Below the pieces are notes generated by a model that did not search any database, was not told where the DNA came from, and was given only the letters and a program-made list of their open reading frames with translations. From sequence record SRR2962707_856: a stretch of 58,761 nt of DNA; one strand, written 5' to 3'. How positions within the stretch are numbered: the stretch's first letter is position 1; every line of letters begins with the position of its first letter. Below are positions 4,136 through 51,188 of this stretch, piece by piece. A program made the translations under genes and the position numbers.

Positions 4136-4840
4136 CTAGATTGAAACGATAAGGTCCGGCTGGAACGACTGGTTCTCGCCGGGGTAGCCTCGCGGATTGG
4201 CAAGCACCCGCGTGGTGCCAATCTCGTAATCGAAGTTGTTATGCACGTGACCGTGGATCCACAGCGCCGCACCGCTTTCCGCAACGATGTCGTCCATATC
4301 GCTGTAATAGGCTCGGTTGATTGCAGACCCAGCGAAGCGACTATGGACGCTCTTCGACGACGGCGCGTGGTGGGTGACAACCACGTCAGCCTTGACGCCC
4401 GACAAGAAGGCACGGCTTGCCGCGTGCAATTGCGTCGCATGGCTTGGCAGGAATCGCTGGTATGGGTTCTTGGTCCACTTGATATAGCGATGGTCGTTCA
4501 TAGCCCGACGGGCCAGTTCGGCTGCCGCTGACGAGTGGCCGTAGTCGGTCCAGAGAGTGGACCCTGCGACCGTCACGCCGTCCACGGTAACGGCTGTGTC
4601 GTCGAGAAAGTGCAGTCCGGGGACAGCAGACAGCTTCGCCAGCCGTTCCTGATAATCCCAGCCGTAGAACTCATGGTTTCCAGCAACGAACACGGTTGGC
4701 AGTCTGGCTGCCGTGCGCTCGAGCCAGTCATCGTTCACAGCATCGCCAGCGACAACCGCAATGTCGGCATTGGCGGGTGGCGCAAGCCACTCCCCGCCGT
4801 GGTCGTAGTGCAGGTCAGAAACAATCCAGAGATTGGTCAC
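4136..4840 (-). CDS. Calcineurin-like metallophosphoesterase
   Basis: SDLH, AGD, GNHE, THHAP, HGHVH motifs. Confidence 0.9.
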   Translation of the reverse strand: MTNLWIVSDLHYDHGGEWLAPPANADIAVVAGDAVNDDWLERTAARLPTVFVAGNHEFYGWDYQERLAKLSAVPGLHFLDDTAVTVDGVTVAGSTLWTDYGHSSAAAELARRAMNDHRYIKWTKNPYQRFLPSHATQLHAASRAFLSGVKADVVVTHHAPSSKSVHSRFAGSAINRAYYSDMDDIVAESGAALWIHGHVHNNFDYEIGTTRVLANPRGYPGENQSFQPDLIVSI

Positions 4841-6093
4841 GCCGCCCTCCTCTGCGGTTGATTGTCGTTGGCGGCAACACCATCCAGCATTGCCACGCGC
4901 ACCCGGCCAATCTCACCCATGTTCCGGTGGTAGGAGATGGTTTGCAGCGACCGACCGGACAGGAACCCCGAACCAAAATGCCATGCGTCTTGCGGTATGG
5001 GCGCCTGATGCGACTCCATAATCACACCGCCGCCTTCGGTCGCTGACTTGGACTGGTGGTGCACATGAAATCCATGGGCGTAGCGGAACTGGGTCGCGCC
5101 CCAATCCACGGCCCGACGATGCGCCATGATTGACGGCATGTCTTTCAGCTTGGCTTCGTGTCCATGTGTGGCGGCAAGCATCACCTTGCCGAAGCGGTGA
5201 TAGAAGAAAAGCGACTGGTCAAGGTCAACTTCGACGCGCGGCTCATTGCGATACCAAGCCTTCAGGAACCATGCGATGGCCGGTGCGGTTTCTTCGTCGT
5301 GGTTGCCCTTCAGGTTTCGAACGATGACACGACCGTTCCGTCTCAGGGCCGCATCGACGGTGCGCACCATAAGTGCGCCGGCCGTCTCGACGACCTTTTG
5401 ATGTCGCCCCTCGACGTCGAGTTGGTTGGCAGAGCGCGCCGTCTGGTTCTTGTTGTTGTCGGCATGTGTTAGGTCGCCACCACCCAAAACGATAGCAACC
5501 GCACTGGCAGGACTGCGCGAAATTGCATCCTCAATGCCTTGCCCGATTTGCTGCTCGGCGTGTTTCAAATCCCAGTTCTGGTCGGTCTCGCGCTGCCATG
5601 CGAACATTCCGACGTGCCAGTCATTGCACGGTATAAGCGTGAGCAAGTCGTCGCTTACCGCGGACGGCGACGGCACTGGGGCCGCGCACGGATCGTAATT
5701 CTCGAAACGCTTGGCTAGGATGTCGGCAATGTCGATCGCGCTTGGCGTCTCCCTTGTCTTCACCCACTGCTGGACCAGCCGCCCTTCGGCGTCGACCAGT
5801 GCGGACACACCCTTGACCGCGTGGCCGGTCGGAACTTCAAACGCCTCGCCGTGTTCCTTGACCTGCTTGACCCAGGAGTCGCCTTCCTTCGTGGCGATCG
5901 ACTTGATTGCGAAACCGGGCTTTGTTTCAGCCGGCCCCAGCAGCCCCCGCTCAGCAGCCCGCGCCAGCCGGTTGTTGAACGTGTTTCTCGGCAGCCCCAG
6001 CGTGGCCGCAGCTTCGGTTTTGTTCTCGCCGCATGCGCGGTAGGCCAGTGCGGCCTCTAGGGCGAGGTCGTCTGTCAATGGTGGGGTGGTCAT
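4837..6093 (-). CDS. Metallophosphoesterase-fold protein with N-terminal Fis-like HTH
   Basis: NKTEAAATLGLPRNT; DWH, GGD, GNHD, THGH, HVHH motifs; ends AANDNQPQRRAA. Confidence 0.8.
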   Translation of the reverse strand: MTTPPLTDDLALEAALAYRACGENKTEAAATLGLPRNTFNNRLARAAERGLLGPAETKPGFAIKSIATKEGDSWVKQVKEHGEAFEVPTGHAVKGVSALVDAEGRLVQQWVKTRETPSAIDIADILAKRFENYDPCAAPVPSPSAVSDDLLTLIPCNDWHVGMFAWQRETDQNWDLKHAEQQIGQGIEDAISRSPASAVAIVLGGGDLTHADNNKNQTARSANQLDVEGRHQKVVETAGALMVRTVDAALRRNGRVIVRNLKGNHDEETAPAIAWFLKAWYRNEPRVEVDLDQSLFFYHRFGKVMLAATHGHEAKLKDMPSIMAHRRAVDWGATQFRYAHGFHVHHQSKSATEGGGVIMESHQAPIPQDAWHFGSGFLSGRSLQTISYHRNMGEIGRVRVAMLDGVAANDNQPQRRAA

Positions 6094-6133
6094 TAGGATT
6101 CTCCTCGGATGGCTGTGGCTAGGTCTGCACGGT

Positions 6134-6451
6134 TCATGCGTCCACCCTCTCTTTCGTGTCAGTCAGCATCCAAGCGAACTTGGCCACGTCGTCGGCTTGC
6201 GTGATTAGGGGGCGGAAGCGACACACACCAAAGCCTTCGGCCTTGCCCCATCTGGTAACTTCGCGGAGGGAGAGCGTTACTTTATTTCGAGGATTACGCC
6301 CGTTGACCTGACCGAGTCTCTCAACTTGGACCGATTCAATCGTGTAGGTTTTGCCGCGCGAGAAAATATTATGGTACTCTCCCTCAATCATAACCGGTCG
6401 ATCATCCACACAAACGACCTTCGCCCCCGGCACTGCCCATGGATAGTTCAT
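6134..6451 (-). CDS. Hypothetical protein
   Basis: ATGA-coupled; GAKVVCVDD...RFRPL phage-type pattern. Confidence 0.65.
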   Translation of the reverse strand: MNYPWAVPGAKVVCVDDRPVMIEGEYHNIFSRGKTYTIESVQVERLGQVNGRNPRNKVTLSLREVTRWGKAEGFGVCRFRPLITQADDVAKFAWMLTDTKERVDA

Positions 6452-6813
6452 GGCTTCACCTCTGCGATTAGAGCGCGCAGGAGGGCGGCTAGGATGGCGA
6501 GTGGGATCGTGACGTTGCAACCCTCGCCGGTTACCCGCTTTCCTCCCAGACCGTCTGGCCACCAGTTGATGTGCGCGCCGCACCCTGACGGGTCGACACC
6601 CATTTGAACTCCGCAGACCGGCAGCAACCGCTCCACCAGCCAAAGCGCGTCGTCAACTGACCCAGTCAGTCTTGGGGGCCATGATACAAAGTCGCACGTT
6701 GCGGATGTGTCAAACGCTTTCACAAGGTCGCGGTTGAGTTGCGAGTCAGCCCCCGTCGCCTTCTCAACCCGATCAAGCAGCGCTTGCAGTTCTTCTTTCG
6801 TCGCCATGTTCAC
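6448..6813 (-). CDS. Hypothetical protein
   Basis: Coupled ORF within operon. Confidence 0.7.
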   Translation of the reverse strand: MNMATKEELQALLDRVEKATGADSQLNRDLVKAFDTSATCDFVSWPPRLTGSVDDALWLVERLLPVCGVQMGVDPSGCGAHINWWPDGLGGKRVTGEGCNVTIPLAILAALLRALIAEVKP

Positions 6814-8757: not shown

Positions 8758-8951
8758 TAGGTTGCCCAGCCGTGTTTCTTGGCCAAGGCGTGCCAGTATT
8801 TCGTCCCGGCGAACACCAGCCCGGACAGCAGCGCGCTAACCTCGTCGACGACCAGCGGATCCTTGAGCATTTCGGTGATGTCGGCGGGTACGGCACGAGC
8901 GGCAAGCCAGCCGGCCAATACGTATAGGAAAAGGCGAGCCCATAAGGTCAT
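8757..8951 (-). CDS. Small holin-like membrane protein
   Basis: Two hydrophobic segments, ends AKKHGWAT; coupled to endolysin. Confidence 0.6.
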   Translation of the reverse strand: MTLWARLFLYVLAGWLAARAVPADITEMLKDPLVVDEVSALLSGLVFAGTKYWHALAKKHGWAT

Positions 8952-9724
8952 GCCGCGTCCCTTTCTTCGTTTTCGTGATTGTCGTTGGCCGGTTCTATGA
9001 CGACCGGCTCGTTGCTTTTCTGACCTTTGATCCGCCGAACCAGCCAGCTTACCGCTGCAATAACCAGCAGCGCGACAATGACGAGCACGCCGGGCTGTAT
9101 GCCCGAAGGCGTAAGCGTGGGCGCTGCGGGCTGTGCGTCAGACTGCGGGGTCTGGTCGACAGTAACGGGCGGTGTCTTGGCGAAGGCGGCTTGTAGTTCC
9201 TTGCTTACGTCGATCTTTTTTGCCGAAGACCAGTCCGGCGACATGTTGGCGCGTACACGCGTGTATTCCGTCATCGTGCCGTTGCTGGACCACTTGCCGT
9301 CGAAGAACAGGTCGCGCTCTAGACCGCGCCGACGCGCTATCTCGTTGGGCTTGGTCCAGTTCATAAAGGCTTGCCGCGCCTTCTCAATCTGGCCCTTGCG
9401 GAAATACTGCACCCAAGTCGCGCGCTTGATGGCGCCAGTGTTCCAATGAAACGAAAGCGCGGCCGCGTACTGGTGTTCGGTTAACGGCACCCCTGCGAAC
9501 GCCTCATCGACCTGTTGTGCGTACCGCTTGAGCGCCCACACGAACACGTTCATGCAGTGCTGCAATGGCGCAGGCTTGCCGATATAGCGCTCGACGCTGT
9601 GGCCGGTGGCGTTGGTCATGCCCACGCACCAGGTCATGACGCCGACCGAGTCCTTGTAAGTCTGGCGCACAAGCGCCTCGTGGGACGCCAGTTCAAGGGC
9701 GGCCCGTGCAGTGAGTGCCATCAC
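8948..9724 (-). CDS. Endolysin (GH24 lysozyme) with C-terminal TM segment
   Basis: HEALVRQTYKDSVGVMTWCVG (E-x8-D-x5-T), AALSFHWNTG, RRRGLERDLF; TM GVLVIVALLVIAAVSWLV. Confidence 0.9.
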   Translation of the reverse strand: MMALTARAALELASHEALVRQTYKDSVGVMTWCVGMTNATGHSVERYIGKPAPLQHCMNVFVWALKRYAQQVDEAFAGVPLTEHQYAAALSFHWNTGAIKRATWVQYFRKGQIEKARQAFMNWTKPNEIARRRGLERDLFFDGKWSSNGTMTEYTRVRANMSPDWSSAKKIDVSKELQAAFAKTPPVTVDQTPQSDAQPAAPTLTPSGIQPGVLVIVALLVIAAVSWLVRRIKGQKSNEPVVIEPANDNHENEERDAA

Positions 9725-16161: not shown

Positions 16162-16163
16162 AC

Positions 16164-19894: not shown

Positions 19895-20671
19895 CTACAC
19901 AAGATAAAGTATCTTTGCGCTTTTCTGGCGGTTATCTACAGTCCACATTGGCCTAAGGTTAGTCAGCGACCAGCAGGCGACGAACTCTGGGTCTGTTTCA
20001 TCTTGAAAAGAGAACGCAGACCTAGGCACGATGTGGTCAATCTCCCATTGATGGAAGTTTTCCCATGTCATTCCCGGCAAAAACTGTTTTTCAAGATGCA
20101 CAAGAAGTTTCTCAAGTGAGTAGCCAACTATAGACTCCCACCGTCTTCCGGCTTTTCTTTCGCGAAGTGCCGCCCGTATTCCAGCACTCATTCGTCCGTG
20201 AATAGCGACATCCGGCTTCTTGCGAAGTTCACGTCCCCTAGCGTTCGCCCTTTCCATTACTTCTGGGCGCTTTGACCTTTCACGGGCATATTCCCGAGTC
20301 TTTTCTAGGTTTTTTAATCGGTATCTTTCCGTACTGGCCCTAGCCAGTTCAACCGCTCGCGGGTTATCTGCCCGGTATCGAATATTTGCTTCTTTCGCGA
20401 GCATCCGCTCGACTTCGTCAGCGCAAGTGGGGCAGTACTTTTGGTTTCCGTTTATCCGCGTGCATTGCTGGCCGCACTTTTGGCACGACATGTCGCGTCC
20501 GATTCTCTGTATGCCTTCGCGATCAGCCCGCCGTTCGCGGCAATCCTTGACGGACGCCCTATGACAGACCTTGCAATCACTCCTGCGCCCATGGAGGCCG
20601 CGAGCACTTTTCACAAAATCTTCAAGTGGCTTCTCAACCAGACACTTGGTGCATATCCTCGCTAGTGCCAT
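19895..20671 (-). CDS. HNH homing endonuclease with Zn ribbons, inserted in tail operon
   Basis: CTKC...CKVC, CQKC...CPTC; WEIDHIVP...NLRPMW..DNRQK. Confidence 0.85.
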   Translation of the reverse strand: MALARICTKCLVEKPLEDFVKSARGLHGRRSDCKVCHRASVKDCRERRADREGIQRIGRDMSCQKCGQQCTRINGNQKYCPTCADEVERMLAKEANIRYRADNPRAVELARASTERYRLKNLEKTREYARERSKRPEVMERANARGRELRKKPDVAIHGRMSAGIRAALRERKAGRRWESIVGYSLEKLLVHLEKQFLPGMTWENFHQWEIDHIVPRSAFSFQDETDPEFVACWSLTNLRPMWTVDNRQKSAKILYLV

Positions 20672-26395: not shown

Positions 26396-26422
26396 AGTAA
26401 TAATATCCTTGGGATGGGCTGG

Positions 26423-28430: not shown

Positions 28431-28446
28431 GCAGCGTTCCTTGTTT

Positions 28447-30910: not shown

Positions 30911-31827
30911 TAGGCTGCCTCGCTACACCCATGAATCTCATTGTCATTGGCTGCTATAGTTGGGAAGTTGAGGTAACAATTACCCAAGCCCCAAGCATCA
31001 ATTGCCGCCCTGTCATACGCCCTCGCCGCTTCCTCGGCGGTGAAGTAGTACCCAAGGAATGGACGCTTATCACCAATGCGAATTGCGGACTTCCACTTGC
31101 CTAGCTGCTTGTTGAAGCTCACGCCTTTGTACTGACTGGCACCACATGGCCCACGCATCCGATTGGATTTCGATATGGCCTGACGATGTGCAGGGTCTTT
31201 GTGGAAGCTGGCTTGTCCAATCTTTTGCTTGTGCGCCTCACTCTTGGGCTTTCCCCTTAGCGCAGCACTAACCTTCGCTGCGACCTCGGGTCGCTGCATG
31301 CCATTATTGGCGCGCATCTTTTCCTTGGTCTCTGGCGTATGACGTCGACCTGTTTGCGACGCCCCCATCTTGGCGCGAGTTTCCGGGGTGGGATTTCTTA
31401 CCCTTTCCAATAGCAGGGCATAGTGCTCAGGTGACAACGTCTTACCTGCGTGCACCAATCCAATTTTACGCTTCGTCTCGTCTGAATGCGGGCGCCCAGA
31501 AGTTCCCTCGCCACCATCCGTAAAGTTAGCAAGAATGCCCGTCTTGTTGTTCAATCGCCCATACTTGGCGATCAACTCTTTCTCAAGGTCGAAGGCCTCA
31601 CGCTCGGTAAGATTCTCCTTGACGCGAACCACTATTGGCTCGCAACCGATAGCCTCTAGTTTGTCGATGATGCGCCGCAATATAACGTTGTTCCTGGCAC
31701 GGAGTCTGTCTCGACGACCGCACCCCTTCCCTACGTAGAAAGGCTCGCCATTCGGCCTGCGCCACTCATAAACGAAAAACCTTTGGCCATTATCATTGGC
31801 CGGAGACTGAATATCCAAAGGCCTCAA
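30910..31827 (-). CDS. GIY-YIG-like homing endonuclease with NUMOD3 repeats and AP2 domain
   Basis: FVY...PFYVGKG; HSDETKRKIG repeats; YKGVS...AEEAARAYD. Confidence 0.8.
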   Translation of the reverse strand: MRPLDIQSPANDNGQRFFVYEWRRPNGEPFYVGKGCGRRDRLRARNNVILRRIIDKLEAIGCEPIVVRVKENLTEREAFDLEKELIAKYGRLNNKTGILANFTDGGEGTSGRPHSDETKRKIGLVHAGKTLSPEHYALLLERVRNPTPETRAKMGASQTGRRHTPETKEKMRANNGMQRPEVAAKVSAALRGKPKSEAHKQKIGQASFHKDPAHRQAISKSNRMRGPCGASQYKGVSFNKQLGKWKSAIRIGDKRPFLGYYFTAEEAARAYDRAAIDAWGLGNCYLNFPTIAANDNEIHGCSEAA

Positions 31828-32471: not shown

Positions 32472-32561
32472 TGGAACGTGAAGTGCGGACTCGAACCGCA
32501 TCCATGGCCGCTATTGCAATTCGCAAACCTGAAAGCGCCAACCCATGCGCCATCTTCACGT
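32472..32561 (-). ncRNA. tRNA-like element with non-canonical anticodon arm
   Basis: 8-bp acceptor ACGTGAAG/CTTCACGT + T-CCA; T-arm TGCGG-TTCGAGT-CCGCA; D-like arm GGCGC/GCGCT. Confidence 0.7.
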
Positions 32562-32743: not shown

Positions 32744-33475
32744 TTACCCTAGCCCTGCGCGGTCCGCTTCAGTTAGGAACACGCGCACCATCTGCAGTCC
32801 ATCCATCACGTATGCTCGACCGATTGGGCCGCTTGACACTGTATTCCCTCCCTTCGCTTCACCTATGGCGCTAAGCGTTTCCCCGTGCAGAACCGCGTTC
32901 TCGAATGGCTCCAACAATGGCCCTAGAGCCTTCTGCATGTCGTAGAGCATCCGGCGACTATCAATCGCTGCGTTTATCATCGCATCGCCGTTCCATGCGT
33001 TCCGGGTTGGTGATGGGTTCTTGGGCTTGAAGGTGACGGGCTTCTTGCTTTCGTCCGCGCCAGTCTCCCACTCAATCTTGTCTCGCTTTGCCAGTGACCG
33101 TCGAACTCCGCGGGTTTCTATCGTCCCGTCATCCTTGGCGTATGACCGTTCATCCAGATTGTACAAATCATCTCCGGCCAGGCTTGTGCCCATCAACTGG
33201 ACGTCTGCCGTGGCAGCGTCGTAAATCGCCCTGTAGCGCTCCGCTACCCGCAACAGAACGTCGTTGCCTTCCTTGCGCAATTGCTGGGCCAGTGGCCACG
33301 CCTGATTGTCGTTAGCGGGCGGTGTGAGCCATTCGGGGCGTCGGGATTCAAGCCGGGCAAGGCGGCGCTTCTGGGCTCTCACGGCTTTTTCCTCATGGGG
33401 GCGATAGGTGATGCGGGAGGGAAGGTTTGATCCGTCGCCGGATAAGGCTAGGTGGTTGTGTGCTGTGGCGGTCAT
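32744..33475 (-). CDS. Hypothetical protein, possible late transcription regulator
   Basis: Last early gene before late leader; C-terminal ETLSAIGE HTH-like segment. Confidence 0.55.
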   Translation of the reverse strand: MTATAHNHLALSGDGSNLPSRITYRPHEEKAVRAQKRRLARLESRRPEWLTPPANDNQAWPLAQQLRKEGNDVLLRVAERYRAIYDAATADVQLMGTSLAGDDLYNLDERSYAKDDGTIETRGVRRSLAKRDKIEWETGADESKKPVTFKPKNPSPTRNAWNGDAMINAAIDSRRMLYDMQKALGPLLEPFENAVLHGETLSAIGEAKGGNTVSSGPIGRAYVMDGLQMVRVFLTEADRAGLG

Positions 33476-34065
33476 TATGCTGCCCTCCTAGAGCGCTCTT
33501 CTGGGGTTTCTATGTATCCGCTCTCCTCTAGCCGCTTTCTCATGCGCTCCTCTTTTTCGGCCAAGTGTTTTCGACCGATCGGCTCATCCAGCTTCCATTG
33601 TTCTTCGATTTTCGGCGTCTTCACGTGGCAGCGGATGATTTCCTTTTTGCATATCTCCGTGATTAGGTTGTGGGCCTCTACAGCTCCACAGCGGAACCAC
33701 TCGCCAACGCCTCGCGTAAAATTGCGTCCTGCGTCTTCATGCGCCCAAGCCTCAACTTTCGTCGTGTGGTTTGTTTTCTCGAACTCAAAGACACGATGCA
33801 CGTAGAGCTTTGAGTGATTTCCGGTCTGCAGTGACCGCATTCTGGATAGAACGTTGCTGGCCTTGCCTATCTTGATGTATTCGGGGTCAGCCTCGCCGAT
33901 CACATAAACGAATCTAGCGCCGGGCGTTTTTGATCGGAATCGGTCGTTAGCGGCCAGAACAATCTCATCATGAAATCGCTCTAACATCGCCATTGTTGGC
34001 TTGGTGTTTCCGCCGCCAGACATTCTGACCAAGCTGTTATCATTCGCTGCCGTGGGTGGGGTCAT
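33475..34065 (-). CDS. GIY-YIG (T5orf172/MUG113-like) protein
   Basis: FVYVI...IKIG..SN..R...LQTGN...GEWF. Confidence 0.8.
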   Translation of the reverse strand: MTPPTAANDNSLVRMSGGGNTKPTMAMLERFHDEIVLAANDRFRSKTPGARFVYVIGEADPEYIKIGKASNVLSRMRSLQTGNHSKLYVHRVFEFEKTNHTTKVEAWAHEDAGRNFTRGVGEWFRCGAVEAHNLITEICKKEIIRCHVKTPKIEEQWKLDEPIGRKHLAEKEERMRKRLEESGYIETPEERSRRAA

Positions 34066-35238: not shown

Positions 35239-35820
35239 TCACGCGGCGGAATCGGTTTTCATGGATTGGGCTTCGGATAGCCACTTCCTCACGATAGCCT
35301 CAGCCGCATCGGCCGCTTCCGCCTCTGTCTTGACCCTGATGATTTCCTGCCGCCCGAACCCCAGCCCATCCAGCAACGCGTGCCGCTCTACTTGTGCGTC
35401 GCTGGTCGTGTTCTCCCACTCCTTGACCTCGATAAGCCCCAACTGCGCGCCAGGCATGTAAACCCGCATGTCGTGCTCCCCGGTCATCATGCCGGTAGCC
35501 TTCGCCTTCACCTTGGCCTGCGCGCCGAACAATGGCAGCCCGTTCATGTCGCCGGCAAAGGCGAAGTTCATTCCGGCCTTGATCATCTGATTGAACCGTC
35601 GGACGATCGCCGCTTGAAGGCGCCACTCGAGAACTGGCGCGTCACCCACCTTGCGAGTGACCTTCCCGTCCTTCGACACACTGGTCGTGATGCGAACGCG
35701 CTTGCCGTTAATTTTTGTCGTCCGGACTTTCCGCTTGCCGGGCTCGGGCAGATCGTCGACGTGATTATCATTCGCAGCGCGAACGACCCGCGTTCCGTTT
35801 TTGGTGGTCCTGATTGCCAT
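35239..35820 (-). CDS. VRR-NUC-like PD-(D/E)XK nuclease
   Basis: EWRLQ...KATGM..GEHD...IEVK...Q. Confidence 0.7.
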   Translation of the reverse strand: MAIRTTKNGTRVVRAANDNHVDDLPEPGKRKVRTTKINGKRVRITTSVSKDGKVTRKVGDAPVLEWRLQAAIVRRFNQMIKAGMNFAFAGDMNGLPLFGAQAKVKAKATGMMTGEHDMRVYMPGAQLGLIEVKEWENTTSDAQVERHALLDGLGFGRQEIIRVKTEAEAADAAEAIVRKWLSEAQSMKTDSAA

Positions 35821-38874: not shown

Positions 38875-39597
38875 TCATGCGGCCGCCTCGAACAAGTCCG
38901 GGTTGTTGTCATTTGCCGGACGTTTCGCCGATCGCGCCATGCCGATAAGAATGTTACGGAACGGCGTCGGTGTGTGTATCCTCGGCGTGCTGTTTTGCCC
39001 GCCACCTTTGGCGCCGACTTCACCCAACCGCTTGGCGCGCTTCAAGCCCATACGCTCGACCACAGCCGGGTCTAGCCGCGGCTCACCGATTCCCCAATCG
39101 AGCTCGGGCAGTTCGCACCCGTAGGCCAGCAATAGCGTCGGCTTGCGCGCATAGTGCCCATATCGGCCTTGCTCGACGCAGCACGTCCATCCGCCATAGA
39201 AGTCAGCGACAATCCACCCACCTGCCCGCGGTGGTTTGTTGATGCCAAAGTGCGCCCACGCATGGCTGCCCCAAGGATGCTCAATGACGCCACCGTACTT
39301 GCGAGCAGACGCTAGAGCCGCGGCAAAGCAACCACCGTCGTCTCCCTTGATTTTTCGAATGCCGGTGCGCTTGATGTAGAGCGGCTGGCCGGCCCATAAC
39401 TTGCCCCAACGCTGGCAAGGTGGGTGAGCGACTACAGGGTGCGGCCCGTCATACGAACGCGCGTCCCGTGCTTCGTCCCAAGGGTCAACGCCTGGCAGGC
39501 CGTAATAACAGCCGCCGGTTTCAACATAGAGCGCCGCAATGGTGCGCCCGCCCGCTACGCCAGTTGCTGGCGCGTTGTCATTCGCCGCGCGGGTCAA
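38875..39597 (-). CDS. Conserved phage protein with HPPC motif (C5-methyltransferase-like)
   Basis: PVVAHPPCQRW, GVIEHP, YGH..RKPT; TTGA-coupled start; ANDN at both ends. Confidence 0.6.
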   Translation of the reverse strand: MTRAANDNAPATGVAGGRTIAALYVETGGCYYGLPGVDPWDEARDARSYDGPHPVVAHPPCQRWGKLWAGQPLYIKRTGIRKIKGDDGGCFAAALASARKYGGVIEHPWGSHAWAHFGINKPPRAGGWIVADFYGGWTCCVEQGRYGHYARKPTLLLAYGCELPELDWGIGEPRLDPAVVERMGLKRAKRLGEVGAKGGGQNSTPRIHTPTPFRNILIGMARSAKRPANDNNPDLFEAAA

Positions 39598-39725
39598 AAC
39601 GGCCACCAAATCAGTGCGAAAAGCACGACCCATAAGAGGAAAAACACAGACCAGATGACGGCGGCAATTCGTCCCCACACTCTGGTCTCACGCTGGAATT
39701 CTGGTGCAAAATCTGGATCAATCAT
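39594..39725 (-). CDS. Small membrane protein (43 aa)
   Basis: TAATG-coupled; one TM segment. Confidence 0.55.
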   Translation of the reverse strand: MIDPDFAPEFQRETRVWGRIAAVIWSVFFLLWVVLFALIWWPF

Positions 39726-40084
39726 TAGAATGGTACTCCGTTCTTGACGGCATCCCGCACACCCTCGCCGCAATACGCCCAAACGGCCCGCACGAACTCC
39801 TCCACCTGGAGCGCGTCCCACGTAGAGAGGTCGGGGCCATTGGCTTCTATAAGCGGCCCAACAGCCTCAATTGCATGATCCACAGCGGCGCGCTCGTAGC
39901 CGTTCCACTGGCGTATGTCTTTGATTTCTGTGAGCATTTCCATGCACCTGTTGCAGAGGTAGTGAGGGTCTTGTTGGGGGTTTCCTACGCCCAGACCATG
40001 GGCGTGCCGGCCACATGCGTGGCAGGCGGTCGGGTAGCCCTGGTGGTCGCGGGTGGGGCGGAAGGGTAGAACGGGGGGGGTCAT
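39725..40084 (-). CDS. Hypothetical Zn-binding protein
   Basis: CHAC...C..C; ends VPF. Confidence 0.65.
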   Translation of the reverse strand: MTPPVLPFRPTRDHQGYPTACHACGRHAHGLGVGNPQQDPHYLCNRCMEMLTEIKDIRQWNGYERAAVDHAIEAVGPLIEANGPDLSTWDALQVEEFVRAVWAYCGEGVRDAVKNGVPF

Positions 40085-40884
40085 GCGGCACCGCCGAACA
40101 GGTCCGCTGGTTGTTCTGGACCTACCCCACCAGCTTGCGCAGGAGGGGTGTTGTCGTTGGCTGCTACAGGAACGACCTGCTCGTCACGAATGCGCCGCTC
40201 GGCTATCGCGAAGTAGTCAGGGTCACGCTCTATGCCGATGAAGCTGCGGCCAGTGTTGCGCGCCGCAAGTCCTGTTGTTCCGCTGCCCATCGTGTTATCG
40301 AGCACGGTTTCACCTTCATTCGTGTAGGTGCGAATGAGGTATTCCATGAGCGCGACGGGCTTTTGGGTGGGGTGGTGGCGAGCGCCCCTGTCATGGTCGA
40401 ACTCGAGAATGGATCTCGGGTAGCGCTCTCCGCTATTCTCGGTCACCACTTCGACCTGCTGGCCATAGTTAGTGCTTTGGCGGCCGGACTTAACGGTGTA
40501 CGGCTTACCGCTAGCCATCTGCGGGTTGTATGTGCATTGCGACCGATAGAATACCAGCACATTTTCATGCGCTTTCATGGGTTGCTTTTTGGCGTTCAGG
40601 TGCCCCGTGGCTAGCCGTTTTGACCAAATCCATTCGTACTTCAGATACTTGAGGCACGACACGCCGAGCGCCTTATCGAACGGTGTCTGCGCCGTCAAAA
40701 CAACCGCGCCATTCGGCTTGACCACGCGCCAATATTCAGCCCACAGATGGTCGAGCGGGATAATAGAGTCCCACTTGTTCTGCGTCGTCCCATACGGCAA
40801 GTCGCACAGGATCATATCGACACTGCTGTCCGCTAGGGTCGGCAGGATTTCAAGGCAATCGCCCAATCTCAGGTCAAAGGACAT
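40081..40884 (-). CDS. DNA N6-adenine/N4-cytosine methyltransferase (beta class)
   Basis: DLPY, HPTQKP, VLDNTMGSGTTG. Confidence 0.92.
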   Translation of the reverse strand: MSFDLRLGDCLEILPTLADSSVDMILCDLPYGTTQNKWDSIIPLDHLWAEYWRVVKPNGAVVLTAQTPFDKALGVSCLKYLKYEWIWSKRLATGHLNAKKQPMKAHENVLVFYRSQCTYNPQMASGKPYTVKSGRQSTNYGQQVEVVTENSGERYPRSILEFDHDRGARHHPTQKPVALMEYLIRTYTNEGETVLDNTMGSGTTGLAARNTGRSFIGIERDPDYFAIAERRIRDEQVVPVAANDNTPPAQAGGVGPEQPADLFGGAA

Positions 40885-41131
40885 GGAAATATGGCTCCAT
40901 CTCTAGACCAACATCGCCCGACCAGACGCACTCACTGTCTTTGTAAATGCGCACATTGACAGGCCACGTATCCTCCCATCCGTCATGGTTGGAGTGGTAG
41001 TCCTCGGCTAAGTCTGTTGCGACCAGTCGCCAGTCGTCATTGTAGGTTGGCTGGTTTTTGGGGAAATCCCAGCGATCAGACCAGACGTCCGATTGGCGTT
41101 CTGATCCCGCGCAGTATTGGAGTTTTGTCAT
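40874..41131 (-). CDS. Hypothetical protein
   Basis: ATGA-coupled; AEDYHSNHDGWE..WP. Confidence 0.65.
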   Translation of the reverse strand: MTKLQYCAGSERQSDVWSDRWDFPKNQPTYNDDWRLVATDLAEDYHSNHDGWEDTWPVNVRIYKDSECVWSGDVGLEMEPYFHVL

Positions 41132-41916
41132 GCGGCCACCTCGCTTGCGGCATTGTCGTTGTCGAACATGCTGACCGGCTTGGGTGGCTTGCGATGTTCT
41201 GTGAACATGTCGCCTTGGCTGTAGGCTTTCTCGATGCGCTCGCACGCCACGTCGAAATACTTGGGGTCCAGTTCGACACCGATAAACTTGCGCCCCATAC
41301 GAGCGCAGGTAACGCCGGTCGTGCCACTTCCAGCGAACGGATCGAGGATTGTCTCGCCGGGGTTGGTGAAGTCGGCCAGCAGTTCGCGCATAAGCGGAAG
41401 TGGCTTTTCGGTCGGGTGCCTGCCGTCGCGGTCGCGCTGGTTGGTCAGGTGGGTATAGACGCCGCGCTTGCCACCAGCGTTCCAGCGCGAGTGGCCCTGC
41501 CCGTTCCATGCAAGCGGCATGGACTCGTAGCCCATTGCTGGCATCTGGCCGTTTAACTGCGGCGTGCTGTCAGGCTTCACCCATATCATCGAGCGCTTAT
41601 ACTTGCTGCCGGCCGCCTCCATAACGTCGCGCCAATCGCCGACAGCCTCGGCTTGGCAGAACAGAAGTATCCAGCCTTGTGACAGTCGGGCAGCCTCTTT
41701 GGCGACAGCGGTTCGCAGGTCTTCGGTTATTGCCGTGAAATCAAGGTCGACGTTGACGCCAGTCTTCACGCTTTTCTGCGTGCGCATCATGGAGCGGTGC
41801 GCCTCCTTTTCGTATGGAGGATCTCCGATGACATGATTCACCGGATCCAAACCGGCCATAACTTCCAGGCAATCGCCATTGTACAACGTGCAATCGCCGA
41901 TGCGTTCAATGCGCAT
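41128..41916 (-). CDS. Second beta-class DNA methyltransferase
   Basis: DPPY, HPTEKP, ILDPFAGSGTTG. Confidence 0.92.
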   Translation of the reverse strand: MRIERIGDCTLYNGDCLEVMAGLDPVNHVIGDPPYEKEAHRSMMRTQKSVKTGVNVDLDFTAITEDLRTAVAKEAARLSQGWILLFCQAEAVGDWRDVMEAAGSKYKRSMIWVKPDSTPQLNGQMPAMGYESMPLAWNGQGHSRWNAGGKRGVYTHLTNQRDRDGRHPTEKPLPLMRELLADFTNPGETILDPFAGSGTTGVTCARMGRKFIGVELDPKYFDVACERIEKAYSQGDMFTEHRKPPKPVSMFDNDNAASEVAA

Positions 41917-42018
41917 GGTGCATCTCTCCTCAAGGTGGCGCACGCAGGTGGTGACTGGGTGCTGTGTGATATAGCGGAGCGCATAAAACGCCCCGCTCTA
42001 TATGCTATAGTATATGCC

Positions 42019-43508: not shown

Positions 43509-45203
43509 CTAAAAAGGAATTATGTCCTCACCAACGGCCAGCTTTGCCAGCCGCTCGCGCTCGTTGTCGTTGTTGGCGGCGGGTGCATGTTGCTCCGCAA
43601 CCGGCACCGCATTGTCGTTCGCAGCGCCCTCGCCCGCCTTATAATCAGTCACGTTCCAATACTTCCCGTTCTTGCGAACCTGGACCTCGGCAGTCTCGCG
43701 CAACTCGCCTGCTTCGACCCTCTCCAAGAACTCTTCCACGCTAGAAGGAAACGGCCGCTTGCCGCCATGCCTTGACCACCAGCGATCCGCCTTGGCTTTC
43801 GCAAAGCCCTCGTGCTCGCAGCAGATCCAATCGCGCTGTATTTCAAGCCCCAAAGTGTAATCGACCCTCACGCTAGGCGTACCGCCTAGCTTTTCGTGGC
43901 GGCGAAACGTCCGTCCCGACACCGACCGCCAAATGGGCTCGTTGGTGGACAGGATGGGGGCGTCGGAGGGCGCAGCGGTAATCTTGACTTCCTCGGACGC
44001 CGGAAACTCATTGCCGCACGCCGGGCATACTTTCGCCGATGCGTGGCAAATCTCGTCGCACTGCTCGCAAATACGGCAGGGTGCCTCGCCTTCACCCTTG
44101 CCGGGCTCTTTCGGCTCAACAGCGTCCACGGGTCCATGGCGTGAGACATTCCCCGCGTGATCGAGCACCAAGCAGTTCTCCTTGCCCGGTGCCATGCGGG
44201 TGCCCCTGCCACAAATTTGTACGTACAAGCCCGTTGAGGCCGTCGGGCGGAGCATTGAAATCAAGTCCACCTGCGGCACGTTAAAGCCCTTGGTGAGCAT
44301 GTTTGCTGAACACAAGGCGCGCAGCTTGCCGGACTTGAAGTCGCGAATGATCGCGTCCTGCCCCGCCGTGCGGCTGGTCAGGCTTGCAGCCGGTATGCCC
44401 TGCGCCAGCAGTTCGTCGCGCACGTGTTCGCTATGATCCTGGCCCGAACAAAAGAACAGCCAAGCCTTGCGGTTTTGCCCGTACCGAATTGCGGTCTGCA
44501 CAGCGGCGCGCGTGATTTCCTCCTTATCAGCGGCACGGTTTAGTTGGCCGGGAATGAACTCGCCGCCTCGCTTGCCAACGCCGCCAAGGTCAATCATCAC
44601 GTCGACGGCCTTGGACGTAAGCGGTGCTAGATAGCCAGCGTCGATCAGGTCGCGCAGCTTGGCTTCGTACACCACGTCGTCAAACAGCCTGTCCTCGCCT
44701 TCGGTGAGCCGCCCACTATCCATGCGGTAGTCAGTGGCGGTCAGGCCTGCCGTGCGGGAGTCCGGGTTCTTGGCGCGTACCGCTGCGAAATACTGGCCGT
44801 ATTGCGTGTCAGCTTTTCGGCTAATCGCGTGCGCTTCGTCGACGATCGTCAGGTCAATATCACCAAGCTCATCAACCTTGTTGGCCACCGACTGGATGCC
44901 AGCAAACAACACTTGCGCGTTGCGGTCGCGTCGACCCAGACCCGCCGAGTAGATTCCCGATGGTGAAAAAGGTGATAGGCCGACGAACTCTTTGAAGTTC
45001 TGTTCCACCAGGGTTTTACTGTCTACCAAATTGACAATCCGCATGTCGGGATAGTCCGCGAGAATTTCCTCAATGAGTTTGGCAATGACGAAAGCTTTGC
45101 CACTGCCGGTTGGCAGGACAATAAGCCCGTTGCCGCCGCTGTTAGCCCAGTAGTCGTATAGGCTGTCCAGGGCGGCTCTTTGGTAGTCGCGGAGTTGGAG
45201 CAT
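43509..45203 (-). CDS. SF2 helicase (RadD/YejH-like) with Zn finger
   Basis: LRDYQ, LPTGSGK, DEAH, TAT, QICGRGTR, CxxC...CPAC. Confidence 0.93.
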   Translation of the reverse strand: MLQLRDYQRAALDSLYDYWANSGGNGLIVLPTGSGKAFVIAKLIEEILADYPDMRIVNLVDSKTLVEQNFKEFVGLSPFSPSGIYSAGLGRRDRNAQVLFAGIQSVANKVDELGDIDLTIVDEAHAISRKADTQYGQYFAAVRAKNPDSRTAGLTATDYRMDSGRLTEGEDRLFDDVVYEAKLRDLIDAGYLAPLTSKAVDVMIDLGGVGKRGGEFIPGQLNRAADKEEITRAAVQTAIRYGQNRKAWLFFCSGQDHSEHVRDELLAQGIPAASLTSRTAGQDAIIRDFKSGKLRALCSANMLTKGFNVPQVDLISMLRPTASTGLYVQICGRGTRMAPGKENCLVLDHAGNVSRHGPVDAVEPKEPGKGEGEAPCRICEQCDEICHASAKVCPACGNEFPASEEVKITAAPSDAPILSTNEPIWRSVSGRTFRRHEKLGGTPSVRVDYTLGLEIQRDWICCEHEGFAKAKADRWWSRHGGKRPFPSSVEEFLERVEAGELRETAEVQVRKNGKYWNVTDYKAGEGAANDNAVPVAEQHAPAANNDNERERLAKLAVGEDIIPF

Positions 45204-47436: not shown

Positions 47437-47437
47437 T

Positions 47438-47968
47438 CTACTCGACCCTCAAGCGATCGTCGTTTTTCCCGTGGTTCTCGTGAAAGCCATACCTATCATT
47501 GGCAGCCTCCCTCGCAAGCTGAGCCATCGGAAGGGACGCATATCGGCCAAGGGAGATGTTCTTCCCGTTCACGGTTATTTGTGCCTGCCAAAGCCCCTTT
47601 TCCTTATTCCAATAGACGCCTGTGAAGCCGCTGGTGTTTGTAGCGTGCATTGAAACGTTTTGCCCGTTGGAAGTCCTGTCAGCGTCTCGTAGATTGTCCC
47701 AAGCATTGTTTGATCGGCAATGGTCTATGTGGTCTACCTCTTCTGGGATGTAATTTTCCATGTATAGGTACGCCAGTCGATGCGCCCTATACCTAGAATA
47801 ATCGACACGGATCAAAATGTAGCCCTTGTCGCTTAAGCTTCCAGCACTTTTTCCAGCCCACCGTCCGTTCCATTTCTCATTGCCGTCTTGTCGGCGAAGC
47901 CATGTAAAGACACCCGTAACCGGGTCGTAGTGCAAAACCTCGCGCAATCTCTCCGCCGTCAGCATCAC
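47438..47968 (-). CDS. HNH-AP2 endonuclease
   Basis: YDPVTGVFTW, AHRLAY, VDHID..RSNNAWDNLR, NTSGFTGVYW. Confidence 0.9.
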   Translation of the reverse strand: MMLTAERLREVLHYDPVTGVFTWLRRQDGNEKWNGRWAGKSAGSLSDKGYILIRVDYSRYRAHRLAYLYMENYIPEEVDHIDHCRSNNAWDNLRDADRTSNGQNVSMHATNTSGFTGVYWNKEKGLWQAQITVNGKNISLGRYASLPMAQLAREAANDRYGFHENHGKNDDRLRVE

Positions 47969-48276
47969 CCCTCCTCCGCCACAGCTTGCGCCGTGGCGTT
48001 ATTGAGGAATGTGGCGTGGTGGTACGCTGATTGGCTGGCCTCGACACTTGCCCACTTAGGAAAGAACTCACGCTCGAGCGTTGTCACAGCATCAGCCAAA
48101 TCGCCCCGCTGGATTTGCGAAATGGCAGTGCGCACCTCGTCGTTGTATTGCGTTTCGTGCTCCGCCCTGCGGCTACGCAATTCCTCGACCAGCGTGTCCG
48201 TTGGCACCTCTGGCAAGACCATATCGAAGTCTATATCGACCTCGACCATGCACGATGTTTGGCGACGTCTAGCCAT
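47965..48276 (-). CDS. Hypothetical protein
   Basis: TGATG-coupled ORF. Confidence 0.6.
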   Translation of the reverse strand: MARRRQTSCMVEVDIDFDMVLPEVPTDTLVEELRSRRAEHETQYNDEVRTAISQIQRGDLADAVTTLEREFFPKWASVEASQSAYHHATFLNNATAQAVAEEG

Positions 48277-49367
48277 CACGCCGCCTCCGCTCGACCAGAC
48301 ACCCGCATGGGCATCAACACCCCGCACCAGTCCGGGTTGCCGCCTGTAATGCGCGCTGGCGAGCCGCCATCGCGGATTTCAAACGTCACCTTGTCGCCTT
48401 CTACCGACCCGACCAGTTCGGCCAGATAGCGCGCGTTGTAGCCAATCTCGAAAGGTTCGCCGTCATAGTCGGCCACGATTTCGTCGTCAGCTTGTCCTTC
48501 CTCGCCCGTGACGGAAAGCACAACCTGGCCCGGCGCAACTTCCAGGCGAACCGCTTTGCCGGCACGTTCGGATGCGAACACACCGACGCGGCCAACTGCG
48601 GTTAGCAGCGCCTTGTTTTCGAGCGTGACCAGTTTGTCGTTCTCTTTGGGGATGACGCGCTCATAGTCAGGGAATGAGCCTTCGACCAATTTGGAAACGA
48701 TAGTCGTGTCGCCCTGCACGAAACGGATACGTCCCTCGCCAATATCCACCTGCACGGTGCCTTCTGGAATTAGGCCAACCGTCTTTCGCGGGACGATGAT
48801 GCCCGCTGCCAAGGTAAGCTCCGGCCCGTACACAGCGGCCAGTCGGTGTCCATCGGTTGCCACGGCACGCAAGCGACCGTCGCTGGTTGTGTGGACAAAC
48901 ACGCCGTTGAGATAGAACCGGGTTTCCTCGTTCGACATGGCGAACGTGACTGGCGCGAACAGCGCAGCAAGGTCAATGGTTGCCGTTGTGGTGTAGTCGG
49001 GCTGCTTGAGTTCGGGGAACCCGTCAACTGGTAATGTCGCAACCTTGAACCGGCTGCGCCCCGATTTGACGACAAGGTGCTCTTGTTCCGTAGTCAGCGT
49101 GATTTCGCTCCCCGCTGGCATGCGTTTGGCAATGTCCAGCAACGTGCGCGCTGGCGCGGTCGTGGTTGGCAAGTCGCCGGCGCATGGCGCGGACGTTGTG
49201 ATTTCGATGCCCAGGTCGGTTGCACGCAAGTGCAACTGCCCGTCGGTTGACGACAGTAGGACGTTCGCCAAAATGGGATAGGTGTTGCGAGTCTCGACCG
49301 CCTTGCTTGCCTGCGTTAGCGCGGCAACAAGGTGGGATCGTTCGATGGTCAGGGTGCCGGTGGGCAT
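48276..49367 (-). CDS. dnaN: DNA polymerase III beta sliding clamp homologue
   Basis: PILANVLL, ATDL, EETRFYLNGV, VATDGHRLA, FPDYERVIP, VLMPMR. Confidence 0.93.
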   Translation of the reverse strand: MPTGTLTIERSHLVAALTQASKAVETRNTYPILANVLLSSTDGQLHLRATDLGIEITTSAPCAGDLPTTTAPARTLLDIAKRMPAGSEITLTTEQEHLVVKSGRSRFKVATLPVDGFPELKQPDYTTTATIDLAALFAPVTFAMSNEETRFYLNGVFVHTTSDGRLRAVATDGHRLAAVYGPELTLAAGIIVPRKTVGLIPEGTVQVDIGEGRIRFVQGDTTIVSKLVEGSFPDYERVIPKENDKLVTLENKALLTAVGRVGVFASERAGKAVRLEVAPGQVVLSVTGEEGQADDEIVADYDGEPFEIGYNARYLAELVGSVEGDKVTFEIRDGGSPARITGGNPDWCGVLMPMRVSGRAEAA

Positions 49368-49407
49368 GTGTGTGGGTCTCCTCTGGTGGGTGCAGTGTGG
49401 TGGGCTG

Positions 49408-49701
49408 CTATCGTCCGTGATATTGCCAAAGAACGGCGTTGCAATAAGCATGCACCGCGCCTTCGGTCAGTCCGGTCTTGTGGCAATGCTGCAAGTGGAC
49501 CGGGTGCTTTAGAAAGTTCTTCGGGAAGCGCCGCCAGTTGATTGGCTTTGATGTGACTGCGCGTGGCGCAGGTTCATCAAGTGGGCCGTGGCAGTGCATG
49601 CACTTGCCGCCCTGCTCCTCCATGTACTGCTCGCGAACTTCTCTCCGCTCCGCCCATTCAAGAGCGTCGTAGCGCACCGGCAACTGGTACGGCATGTTCA
49701 T
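49408..49701 (-). CDS. Endonuclease VII-like protein
   Basis: QGGKCMHC...HLQHCHKTGL..GAVHAYCN. Confidence 0.7.
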   Translation of the reverse strand: MNMPYQLPVRYDALEWAERREVREQYMEEQGGKCMHCHGPLDEPAPRAVTSKPINWRRFPKNFLKHPVHLQHCHKTGLTEGAVHAYCNAVLWQYHGR

Positions 49702-49767
49702 CTCCTCATCTGGTGGCACCGGGGCGCGTGGTGAACGCCCCGGCTGGTTGTTGCTACACGGTCGGCG

Positions 49768-50358
49768 CTACCCCCAAGGACGTGCCTTCTTGGCACCGCC
49801 AGACTGCGCCGCAGGGCGGTTGTCGTTCGCGGCAGCGCGGTTGTCGTTTGCGGCGGGCTGCTGCTGTGACACGGCGGCACCAGCGTCCACAAACGGCTGC
49901 GGCACTTGGCCGTCCTGGGGGAAATAGTAGCGCTTCACCTCGTTGCTCTGGCGCATGATCTGGTTGCCGTTCGCGTCGAGAAGCGGCACGCCGTCCTTCT
50001 TGGCGGGATACGGCTTGCCGAAACCAACCTTGGCGACGAACGGGCGGAAGTGGAATTCCTCGGTGTTCTCGTAGTCTTCGAGTTCGCACGCCTTGGCCAG
50101 CTTGCCGATATTGCGATTTCCAATGTCCTGAGCCTGCGGCGTGCTGTGCTCGCCCCACTCGCTGATGTAGAAGGTTCTGCCCTCATATTCCTCCGGCGCC
50201 AGAACCGTGCATTTGAACTCTGCCTTCTTGCCGTTACCCTGCTCCTTGTAGTCGGACTCGACGACCTCAAGCCCGTAGATGCCCTCCGGGAGCGGGCTGT
50301 AATCCGATTGGGAAGTGTCGACGTCGTTCACATTGGTTTTCTTGCCAAGACTGGCCAT
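49768..50358 (-). CDS. DUF669-like single-stranded DNA-binding protein
   Basis: YSPLPEGIY...EYEGR...NEVK; follows Sak4-like ATPase; PW C-terminus. Confidence 0.7.
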   Translation of the reverse strand: MASLGKKTNVNDVDTSQSDYSPLPEGIYGLEVVESDYKEQGNGKKAEFKCTVLAPEEYEGRTFYISEWGEHSTPQAQDIGNRNIGKLAKACELEDYENTEEFHFRPFVAKVGFGKPYPAKKDGVPLLDANGNQIMRQSNEVKRYYFPQDGQVPQPFVDAGAAVSQQQPAANDNRAAANDNRPAAQSGGAKKARPWG

Positions 50359-50393
50359 TTGGTTCTCCTAGTGGTGGTGGTGTGGTGTGGTGG

Positions 50394-51188
50394 TTAGGCA
50401 GCCTTGGCAGACTTCCCATTGTCGTTCGCAGCGCCCGGCAGATATTTGGCCAGTTCGGCGAAGCCCTGACCCTTCTTGTACGGGATGCTATCCGGCAGGC
50501 TGTACCGGTTCTTCGCCACGAAGCCCGCCTTCTCATTGAAGTGCATAAGGCGTTCGTTGCCGCCCTCGGCGTGCGAAACCTTTTTGTTGAACCCGACCTC
50601 TTTTTCCTTGAGCGAGATTCGGTAGTTCACGAACGCGACGACGTCGGCCTGCTCACGGACCATCGCATTGGCGCGCTTGTGCAGCTTCACGGTGTACCGC
50701 GAATATGGATCCGACGTCGGACTGTCGAAGCGAATGATCTCCGGGTGGGCAAGCTGCACCACAAAGATGCCGGCACGAGACATTGCCGAAACAGCCTTCA
50801 GATATTCGTCCCACTCGGCGTCCGCTTCGATGTAGCCTTTGCCGTACCCAGGCTCCTCGATCGACGACACGCCAAGCCGCTGACACGTCGCGGCCCAAAC
50901 AAGGCTTTCGAGCCCGTCCAAACTGTCGACGATCACGGTTTGAAAGTCGTGCTCTTCGGTCAGCAGTTCGCCGAAAATATCGAGCAGGCTATGGAATGAC
51001 TCGATTGTACCGGGCGTCGTCAATTCAACGTCGCTGGGCGGCGTTTCGCCTTCCGTCGGCAGGTAGAGCACCGGGCCGGGGAATTCCGCTGCAAGGCTGG
51101 TTTTGCCGACGCCATCGACGCCGTAAATCACGGTACGCGGCGGGTTGTTGGTCTTGGTGGTGGTAAGGGTGGATAATGATAGGGCCAT
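50394..51188 (-). CDS. AAA_24 / Sak4-like ATPase
   Basis: IYGVDGVGKTSLA, TVIVDSLD, GYGKGY, AKNRY. Confidence 0.88.
   Translation of the reverse strand: MALSLSTLTTTKTNNPPRTVIYGVDGVGKTSLAAEFPGPVLYLPTEGETPPSDVELTTPGTIESFHSLLDIFGELLTEEHDFQTVIVDSLDGLESLVWAATCQRLGVSSIEEPGYGKGYIEADAEWDEYLKAVSAMSRAGIFVVQLAHPEIIRFDSPTSDPYSRYTVKLHKRANAMVREQADVVAFVNYRISLKEKEVGFNKKVSHAEGGNERLMHFNEKAGFVAKNRYSLPDSIPYKKGQGFAELAKYLPGAANDNGKSAKAA

Follow-up and report, generated by a model that had tools for sequence, protein, structure and literature searches.

The 58,761-nucleotide stretch of DNA analysed here (sequence record SRR2962707_856; hereafter, the window) raises the question of why unrelated phage enzymes should end in short peptides that look like the tag that transfer-messenger RNA (tmRNA) adds to stalled proteins. 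In its typical form, the peptide begins with an AANDN head and ends in Ala-Ala (AA), directly before the stop codon. An earlier note, made from the sequence alone, had listed eight such C-terminal tails and proposed that they converged independently on the two recognition elements of the natural ssrA tag. Observation of the eight tails is confirmed, and they are a subset of a wider pattern that includes N-terminal copies of the motif and heads of longer tails. We consider it moderately probable that the tails are genome-encoded, two-part degrons that mimic the host ssrA tag and bring about SspB-assisted turnover of their carriers by ClpXP. The proposal of the earlier note is supported at the level of the sequence; that SspB and ClpX actually read the two elements is suggested by one structure model and by analogy. 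The tails are written in-frame in the genes, not added by tmRNA, and are in this sense mimics rather than true ssrA tags.

The window represents a temperate, 16-3-like siphophage with a host in the Rhizobiaceae, because of the kinship of its terminase and the layout of its repressor, excisionase and integrase genes. The large terminase shares ~85% protein identity with those of Rhizobium phage 16-3, Sinorhizobium phage AP-16-3 and Rhizobium phage RHph_X2_25. Relatives were found at the protein level; a megablast search of the phage collection with a single 5-kb probe (window 25100–30051) returned no near-identical phage DNA. The minus strand carries the genes up to ~54 kb, with virion genes at 10.5–30 kb and early, replication and modification genes elsewhere. 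From 54.4 kb, the plus strand encodes a CI-like repressor, a T5orf172 gene, an excisionase-like gene and a tyrosine integrase.

All eight listed tails lie in the coding frame, at the stops of the following minus-strand genes (coordinates of each tail include its stop codon):

1332–1382, minus strand: tail AANENRLKILRPRVAA, of HNH endonuclease gene 1332–2102; variant head ANEN, 16 residues.
4837–4875, minus strand: tail AANDNQPQRRAA, of exonuclease-like gene 4837–6093; PHROG 704 'DNA repair exonuclease', match ending at residue 401 of 418.
8948–8992, minus strand: tail PANDNHENEERDAA, of lysozyme-family endolysin gene 8948–9724.
30910–30954, minus strand: tail AANDNEIHGCSEAA, of NUMOD3/AP2 homing-endonuclease-like gene 30910–31818; stop TAG, no overlapping start.
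38875–38919, minus strand: tail PANDNNPDLFEAAA, of PHROG 12600 gene 38875–39633.
40081–40164, minus strand: long tail AANDNTPPAQAGGVGPEQPADLFGGAA, of N6_N4 DNA methyltransferase gene 40081–40884; ends PADLFGGAA.
41128–41163, minus strand: tail DNDNAASEVAA, of the second N6_N4 methyltransferase gene, 41128–41943; degenerate head.
50394–50432, minus strand: tail AANDNGKSAKAA, of Sak4-like AAA_24 gene 50394–51188; stop TAA, no overlapping start.

The gene labels given in the earlier note hold for the HNH endonuclease, the lysozyme/endolysin, the endonuclease, both methyltransferases and the Sak4-like protein. The label phosphoesterase at 4837 is slightly off: this gene is exonuclease-like, and its stop overlaps the GTG start of the Metallophos phosphoesterase gene at 4136–4840. 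All eight tails (8/8) close with AA and then the stop. Five of the eight start with AANDN or PANDN at tag length, one more starts with AANDN and is long, and the remaining head variants are DNDN (41128) and AANEN (1332); close relatives of the 41128–41943 methyltransferase have AANDN where the window has DNDN. Counted from the A of ANDN, six of the eight tails are 11–13 residues long. The tail at 40081 unites an ANDN head, a DLF motif and an AA end, and in the Sak4-like protein AANDN occupies residues 253–257. Domain matches stop ahead of the tails, at residues 237 of 267 and 248 of 271 for the PHROG 67 methyltransferases and at residue 280 of 305 for the AP2 domain.

The host side of the comparison comes from the Rhizobiaceae. 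A prophage of Shinella sumterensis (L001) carries seven ANDN in 20 kb; the Shinella tmRNA encodes ANDNYAEARLAA, and sspB adjoins. SspB was found in 41 of 41 sampled Rhizobiaceae genomes, and of 29 further genomes of the family, 25 have a tmRNA gene inside the 3.5-kb sspB locus. The two-piece tmRNA gene is thus directly beside sspB in Rhizobiaceae, such that tag template and adaptor are neighbours. The tag ANDNYAEARLAA (12 residues, host tags also being counted from the A of ANDN) is encoded by 21 of 26 tmRNAs, that of Shinella included, and 13-residue variants beginning ANDNN by the other five; ANDNNAKEYALAA is another tag form in the family. All host tags found begin with ANDN, and with the tmRNA-borne alanine the native tag starts AANDN, identical to the phage head. 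The AANDN-coding pattern has nine sites in the 5.4-Mb Shinella genome, six of them within one 20-kb stretch of one contig (reversed control: 0). We infer that this stretch is the prophage, because the motif-rich run of L001 sits there. By these counts, the host's own proteins almost never carry AANDN. A phmmer search with the Shinella SspB as query against the 701 open reading frames of the window found no phage-encoded SspB.

The motif is far in excess of chance. An unbiased k-mer scan of the 92 called proteins of the window (17,915 residues) returned ANDN as the most over-represented 4-mer, with 21 copies observed and 0.147 expected from composition (2000 residue shuffles: mean 0.15, maximum 3), and AANDN as the top 5-mer (13 observed, 0.017 expected). 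AA ends were seen in 19 of the 92 genes; shuffles gave 1.3 on average and 6 at most. When both strands were searched for AAYGAYAAY, 30 of 34 sites fell in the sense coding frame, and all eight of the eight synonymous spellings occurred. This frame-lock, together with free synonymous variation, indicates that selection is on the peptide, not on the DNA or RNA; a DNA- or RNA-level motif was rejected on these two grounds and on the lack of any Rfam match. Pfam and PHROG matches end before the C-terminal copies and begin after the N-terminal copies. The copies avoid the virion module, which holds 1 of 21 ANDN though it makes up 35% of residues (P=0.0017); similarly, AA ends are found on 2 of 23 structural genes of the window vs 17 of 69 others.

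The earlier note had proposed the distribution of ANDN-to-stop distances across related phages as a check. A helicase search returned 45 viral contigs, of which the 30 with a best segment at least 50% identical were kept as close; these carry 1.7–6.9 ANDN per 10 kb, and the other 15 carry 0–1 copies. Proteins from a pooled set (the window, phage 16-3, L001 and the 30 contigs) were clustered by their bodies, giving 129 unique tails in 34 families. Sorted by length, measured from the A of ANDN through the final residue, and with xA denoting an end in Ala other than AA, the tails were distributed as follows:

Length up to 10: 5 tails; AA 2, xA 1, other 2.
Length 11–14: 49 tails; AA 29, xA 17, other 3 (46 end in Ala).
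Length 15–20: 32 tails; AA 8, xA 5, other 19.
Length 21–32: 43 tails; AA 16, xA 3, other 24.

The distances are not random across relatives: they peak at 11–14 (49 of 129), with five shorter tails, and the peak brackets the 12–13 residues of the native tag, in agreement with the match in length that had been claimed. A tail of 11–14 residues is present in 24 of the 34 families, and the family median falls at 11–14 in 22 of 34 (binomial P ~1e-11 each, under a flat null over lengths 4–32). Near-copies of the native tag exist among the relatives (AANDNYAEAANAA, from contig L029, and AANDNFGEFARAA). Compared with 20 distinct host tag-coding sequences, the most tag-like tail (that of L029) agrees at 25–29 of 39 bases, which is about the level given by the shared residues and fits capture or convergence alike. 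Phage 16-3 itself has 22 NDN sites, with tag-like ends on its portal, exonuclease, HNH protein, Cas4-like nuclease and two methyltransferases.

Head and end can be separated. Within families, ANDN and the closing Ala are retained, whereas the residues between them change and so does the length (11 to 26 residues in methyltransferase tails), bearing out the claim that the middles are unrelated. Independent origins, the other part of the proposal, are upheld by the occurrence of tails in 34 unrelated families and by the tree of the Sak4-like family, on which the ANDN head needs at least two changes. In that family, 17 of 24 members have the AA end and three of 24 (the window and a pair of contigs) have an ANDN-type head; the head would seem to behave as an add-on. 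Homologues of gene 38875 from sphingomonads, Rhodobacteraceae, Brevundimonas and metagenome-assembled genomes mostly end in Ala-Ala, with the junction GCAGCATGA and without ANDN, and the AA end is altogether far more widespread than the ANDN head. Gene counts nevertheless tie the two together:

Genes with C-terminal ANDN, AA-ended: window 6 of 8, relatives 46 of 118.
Genes with N-terminal ANDN only, AA-ended: window 4 of 7, relatives 12 of 28.
Genes without ANDN, AA-ended: window 8 of 69, relatives 144 of 644.

Head and end are thus associated even when they stand at opposite termini (odds ratios in the relatives of 2.2 and 2.6, from counts that include orthologues and are non-independent).

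Could the AA end simply be a by-product of overlapping stop and start codons? The earlier note had argued that it could not, pointing to three genes (1332, 30910 and 50394) that lack the GCATGA/GCGTGA junction. Their junctions are indeed GCCTAA, GCCTAG and GCCTAA. Among the 19 AA-ended genes of the window, the junction is GCATGA in six, GCGTGA in four and neither in nine; every one of the four Ala codons and three stops occurs. The coupling motif is therefore insufficient to explain the AA ends, and an origin in translational coupling was rejected as their sufficient cause, 9 of 19 having no overlapping start.

Binding of the head by SspB was modelled in one complex job, consisting of two copies of Shinella SspB (residues 1–125) and the C-terminal 35 residues of the Sak4-like protein from the window. 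The complex scored 0.62 (best control: 0.02). In the calibration, which excluded peptides, 51 of 78 solved complexes attained this mark, as did 2 of 108 mismatched pairs. Runs share at least 48% of contacts. The confident interface in the model comprises tail residues 250–259 and is tightest at 253–257, that is, at AANDN; it faces SspB positions with little or no variation among 24 aligned SspB sequences. Solved structures exist for relatives of Rhizobiaceae SspB (2NYS, 2QAS and 2QAZ). Binding of the AANDN head by SspB is, on this model, supported but short of shown. According to the passages of PMC9963277 on the Escherichia coli system, SspB binds the tag's first seven residues while ClpX simultaneously holds the last four; spacing between head and end would matter because both proteins contact the tag at once.

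Under the degron reading, the head [A/P]-A-N-D-N, often followed by x-P, would copy the SspB-bound start of the Rhizobiaceae tag (A)ANDNYAEARLAA, and the Ala-Ala-COOH end would copy the part of the tag that ClpX grips. With both elements at the native distance (11–14 residues), SspB could hand the carrier to ClpXP for degradation, conferring short half-lives on nucleases, methyltransferases, the recombinase, homing endonucleases and the endolysin. A plausible purpose would be to remove DNA-damaging or lytic early proteins at lysogeny, or to time the lytic programme. We infer both the degradation by ClpXP and its biological purpose.

Several observations count against the degron reading. Of the eight tails, those at 1332 and 41128 are the only ones to end in VAA; the remaining six end in RAA, DAA, EAA, AAA, GAA and KAA. 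Tyr or another aromatic residue after ANDN is rare in phage tails, while host tags have Tyr there and L or V at -3. Pro at +2, seen in 98 of 230 ANDN instances, is absent from host tags, and xA takes the place of AA in 17 of the 49 tails of tag length. ANDN also heads tails with other tips (DD[IV]PF in the helicase, RPWGxK in the SSB-like protein), for which degradation is not an obvious aim, and the portal of phage 16-3, a virion protein, ends in a full tag (TANDNQEDEAEAA). AA ends are common without ANDN in the relatives (144/644), making the association of head and end a moderate one. With regard to the complex model, the predicted local distance difference test (pLDDT) of the partner is low (44–48), the SspB alignment of our own was left out, and the model may owe its score to solved SspB-ssrA complexes (2QAZ and relatives) that it has memorised. 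Finally, there is no ANDN in 17 loci of other bacteria with a homologue of gene 38875, including the loci of three sphingomonad hosts that have ANDNEALA[IL]AA tags. Given ANDN-tagged hosts yet ANDN-free loci, mimicry is therefore a trait of this phage clade and not a general rule. It is an invention of one phage clade, and the strength of the degron probably varies widely from tail to tail.

There are rival explanations, two of which keep the peptide and change what it is for. In one, to which we give a modest chance, [A/P]ANDNxP would be a short motif to which a different protein, of the host or the phage, docks (a replication or recombination hub, a chaperone, a processing protease), with the likeness to the tag being coincidental or secondary. 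This would account for the phages' own preference for Pro at +2 (98/230), which has no counterpart in host tags, for the motif heading tails with other partner-binding-type tips (DD[IV]PF, RPWGxK, DLF), and for its confinement to one phage clade though other hosts have ANDN tags. Yet identity with the host head over five residues, combined in 24 of 34 families with a native length and Ala-Ala ends, would be an unlikely coincidence; the model seats exactly AANDN in the SspB groove, no alternative candidate was identified, and the window has no SspB-like gene. The other explanation is that the tails act as decoys: by occupying SspB and ClpXP, they would spare or delay host ssrA-tagged proteins, or host or phage regulators controlled by ClpXP (proteolytic queueing). 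About a quarter of the non-virion genes bear the head, the end or both, which would amount to a large load when co-expressed; many heads are on proteins without an AA end (the helicase, the SSB-like protein) that could bind SspB unconsumed, and the same complex model (0.62 vs 0.02) would support binding here too. However, the sharp peak at 11–14 residues with Ala ends (46/49) is needed for hand-off to ClpX and not for mere occupancy of SspB, and the AA end is kept in families without any head. We regard a decoy function as rather improbable.

The remaining two explanations dispense with a reader of the peptide. ANDN and Ala-rich ends could be a neutral habit of disordered tails, spread by descent and recombination; the tails are generally rich in Ala and Pro, and many instances are orthologous. 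A neutral quirk is hard to square with a 140-fold enrichment of one 4-mer, where neighbouring k-mers have no comparable excess, with retention of the motif while flanking residues vary, with repeated gains on the tree and the sharp length distribution, or with a host genome that is nearly motif-free outside the prophage; we disfavour it as very unlikely. Alternatively, AAYGAYAAY and GCNGCN-stop could serve the nucleic acid (coupling, termination context, a promoter or an RNA site), the peptides being by-products. Consistent with this, in 10 of the 19 AA-ended genes the stop and the following start overlap, and C-terminal heads lie 30–40 bases upstream of the next gene. Against it, 30 of 34 sites are in the sense frame in all eight spellings, 9 of 19 AA ends have no overlapping start, the N-terminal copies come after start codons rather than before them, and there are zero Rfam matches; we give this explanation almost no credence.

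The wider pattern to which the eight tails belong takes in a number of other genes of the window. The motif lies within the first 20 residues of 10 window genes, directly before conserved domains, and seven of the 10 genes whose first 20 residues include NDN have an AA end. Head- or end-bearing features beyond the eight tails are:

31789–31803, minus strand: PANDN at residues 6–10 of endonuclease gene 30910–31818, ahead of the conserved domain (PHROG match from residue 16–17).
33475–34065, minus strand: T5orf172-domain gene; N-terminal MTPPTAANDN, C-terminal SRRAA.
35239–35820, minus strand: PHROG 824 gene; AANDN at residues 15–19, C-terminal TDSAA.
39574–39588, minus strand: N-terminal AANDN of PHROG 12600 gene 38875–39633, ahead of the conserved domain (PHROG match begins after it).
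43509–43625, minus strand: tail of helicase gene 43509–45203; AANDN, then NNDN, ends EDIIPF, no AA end.
49768–49857, minus strand: tail of SSB-like gene 49768–50358; two AANDN copies, ends KKARPWG, no AA end.
53546–53779, minus strand: second early gene, 77 residues; N-terminal MKTADNDN, C-terminal VRRAA.
53776–53937, minus strand: first gene of the leftward early operon, 53 residues; N-terminal MRTPANDN, C-terminal SEVAA; zero Pfam or PHROG matches.
57112–57489, plus strand: T5orf172 (GIY-YIG-like) gene; N-terminal MQAANDN, C-terminal LGVAA.

The integrase (57650–58660, ending SSLEF) and the CI-like repressor (54413–55090, ending FAQRG) are untagged.

Other features of these genes were observed along the way. 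The endolysin (8948–9724) consists of a lysozyme domain, a Pro/Thr-rich linker, a hydrophobic, membrane-type segment (GVLVIVALLVIAAVSWLV), RRIK and then the tag-like tail; this order suggests a membrane-tethered endolysin whose tail faces the cytoplasm. Genes of putative homing-endonuclease type (HNH, NUMOD3/AP2, T5orf172) are abundant in the window (1332–2102, 19895–20101, 30608–30910, 30910–31818, 33475–34065, 47438–47968 and 57112–57489, with the label for 19895–20101 and 30608–30910 taken from the translation alone), and several of them bear ANDN heads and AA ends. The helicase has an SSB-like acidic tip, EDIIPF (DD[IV]PF in relatives), and the SSB-like protein has a basic RPWG(xK) tip; both tips are kept in ~20 relatives, a hint that the phage replisome makes tail-mediated contacts that are swapped or novel. 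D[LM]F adjoins the ANDN head, on either side, in the methyltransferases and the PHROG 12600 protein (ADLFGGAA, PDLFEAAA, ADMF-AANDN), and in this position we take it to resemble a sliding-clamp-binding motif. The phage encodes a beta clamp of its own (48276–49451), with three DNA_pol3_beta domains and the end RAEAA. Rfam matched zero families in the window; a 90-base tRNA-Ala(tgc) called by ARAGORN at 32472–32561 on the minus strand, with an odd anticodon position, was rejected, the Rfam tRNA model being below threshold anywhere in the window. The call may be spurious, or the piece tRNA-like but degenerate.

How do the tails compare with known systems? With the native alphaproteobacterial ssrA tag, they share the AANDN head, the Ala-Ala-COOH end and the length. 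They differ from it in that tmRNA adds the native tag to stalled chains, whereas the phage tails are gene-encoded and present on every copy of the protein. In addition, the middle residues of the phage tails are unrelated, with the hydrophobic -3 residue and the Tyr mostly missing, and the phage head can also stand by itself, at an N-terminus or ahead of other tail motifs. A split layout is reportedly found in N-RseA, a single host regulator produced by cleavage, in which the SspB-binding stretch is separate from a C-terminal VAA degron; the SspB-binding sequence of RseA is said to be unrelated to AANDN. The layout would resemble the one that we propose for window genes with N-terminal ANDN and C-terminal AA, but N-RseA is one cleavage-made host regulator as opposed to a proteome-wide phage design. 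Table 1 of PMC8138137 lists it among natural SspB-ClpXP substrates (Flynn et al. 2004). The tag of Caulobacter, as given in PMC9393093, is AANDNFAEEFAVAA.

The nearest precedent found is the pair of ssrA-like tags on the integrase (Int) and repressor (Rep) of mycobacteriophages. These C-terminal tags belong to integration-dependent immunity (Broussard et al. 2013, as described in PMC9635641). As in the window, the tag is ssrA-like and encoded in a phage genome, and proteolysis of the ClpXP type is described as setting protein levels and influencing the choice between lysis and lysogeny. In the mycobacteriophage system, as described there, two regulators are tagged and their tags are removed by integration within the repressor gene; here, in contrast, integrase and repressor are untagged, and the tags are on some twenty enzymes and small early proteins, with an adaptor-binding head. 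The classical phage substrates of ClpXP are lambda O and MuA (Table 1 of PMC8138137). They are likewise phage replication and transposition proteins governed by host ClpX via a terminal peptide; their signals are different (an N-terminal motif in lambda O, RRKKAI in MuA) and lack an SspB-type head. Pseudomonas phage pf16 encodes SspB, according to PMC5587285, and to that extent is a phage that engages the SspB branch of host proteolysis; pf16 carries the adaptor, while the phage of the window carries the adaptor's ligand without an SspB homologue. As far as our literature search reached (a query for 'ANDN' was dominated by unrelated text), no description was found of phage enzymes, many and unrelated, that systematically bear a two-part copy of the host tag.

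We tentatively put forward, as a possibility about which we are somewhat doubtful, that a clade of rhizobiophages has made the ribosome-rescue tag into a modular, evolvable address: an ANDN handle at either terminus and an AA grip, gained and lost gene by gene, which would govern how long about a quarter of the non-virion proteins persist and would perhaps compete with host ssrA-tagged proteins. This would be the first proteome-wide, adaptor-level degron mimicry for a bacterial virus. Already known are single phage proteins with ClpXP signals and ssrA-like tags on two mycobacteriophage regulators. If true, the degron reading would show how a temperate phage limits the lifetime of its nucleases, methylases, recombinases and endolysin; it would provide natural, tunable degrons for alphaproteobacteria (with variable spacers and -3 residues), and a sequence signature that ties uncultured phage contigs to hosts by tag type. 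Phage 16-3 and Sinorhizobium meliloti are a tractable and harmless pair for the laboratory, and the idea is hence directly testable.

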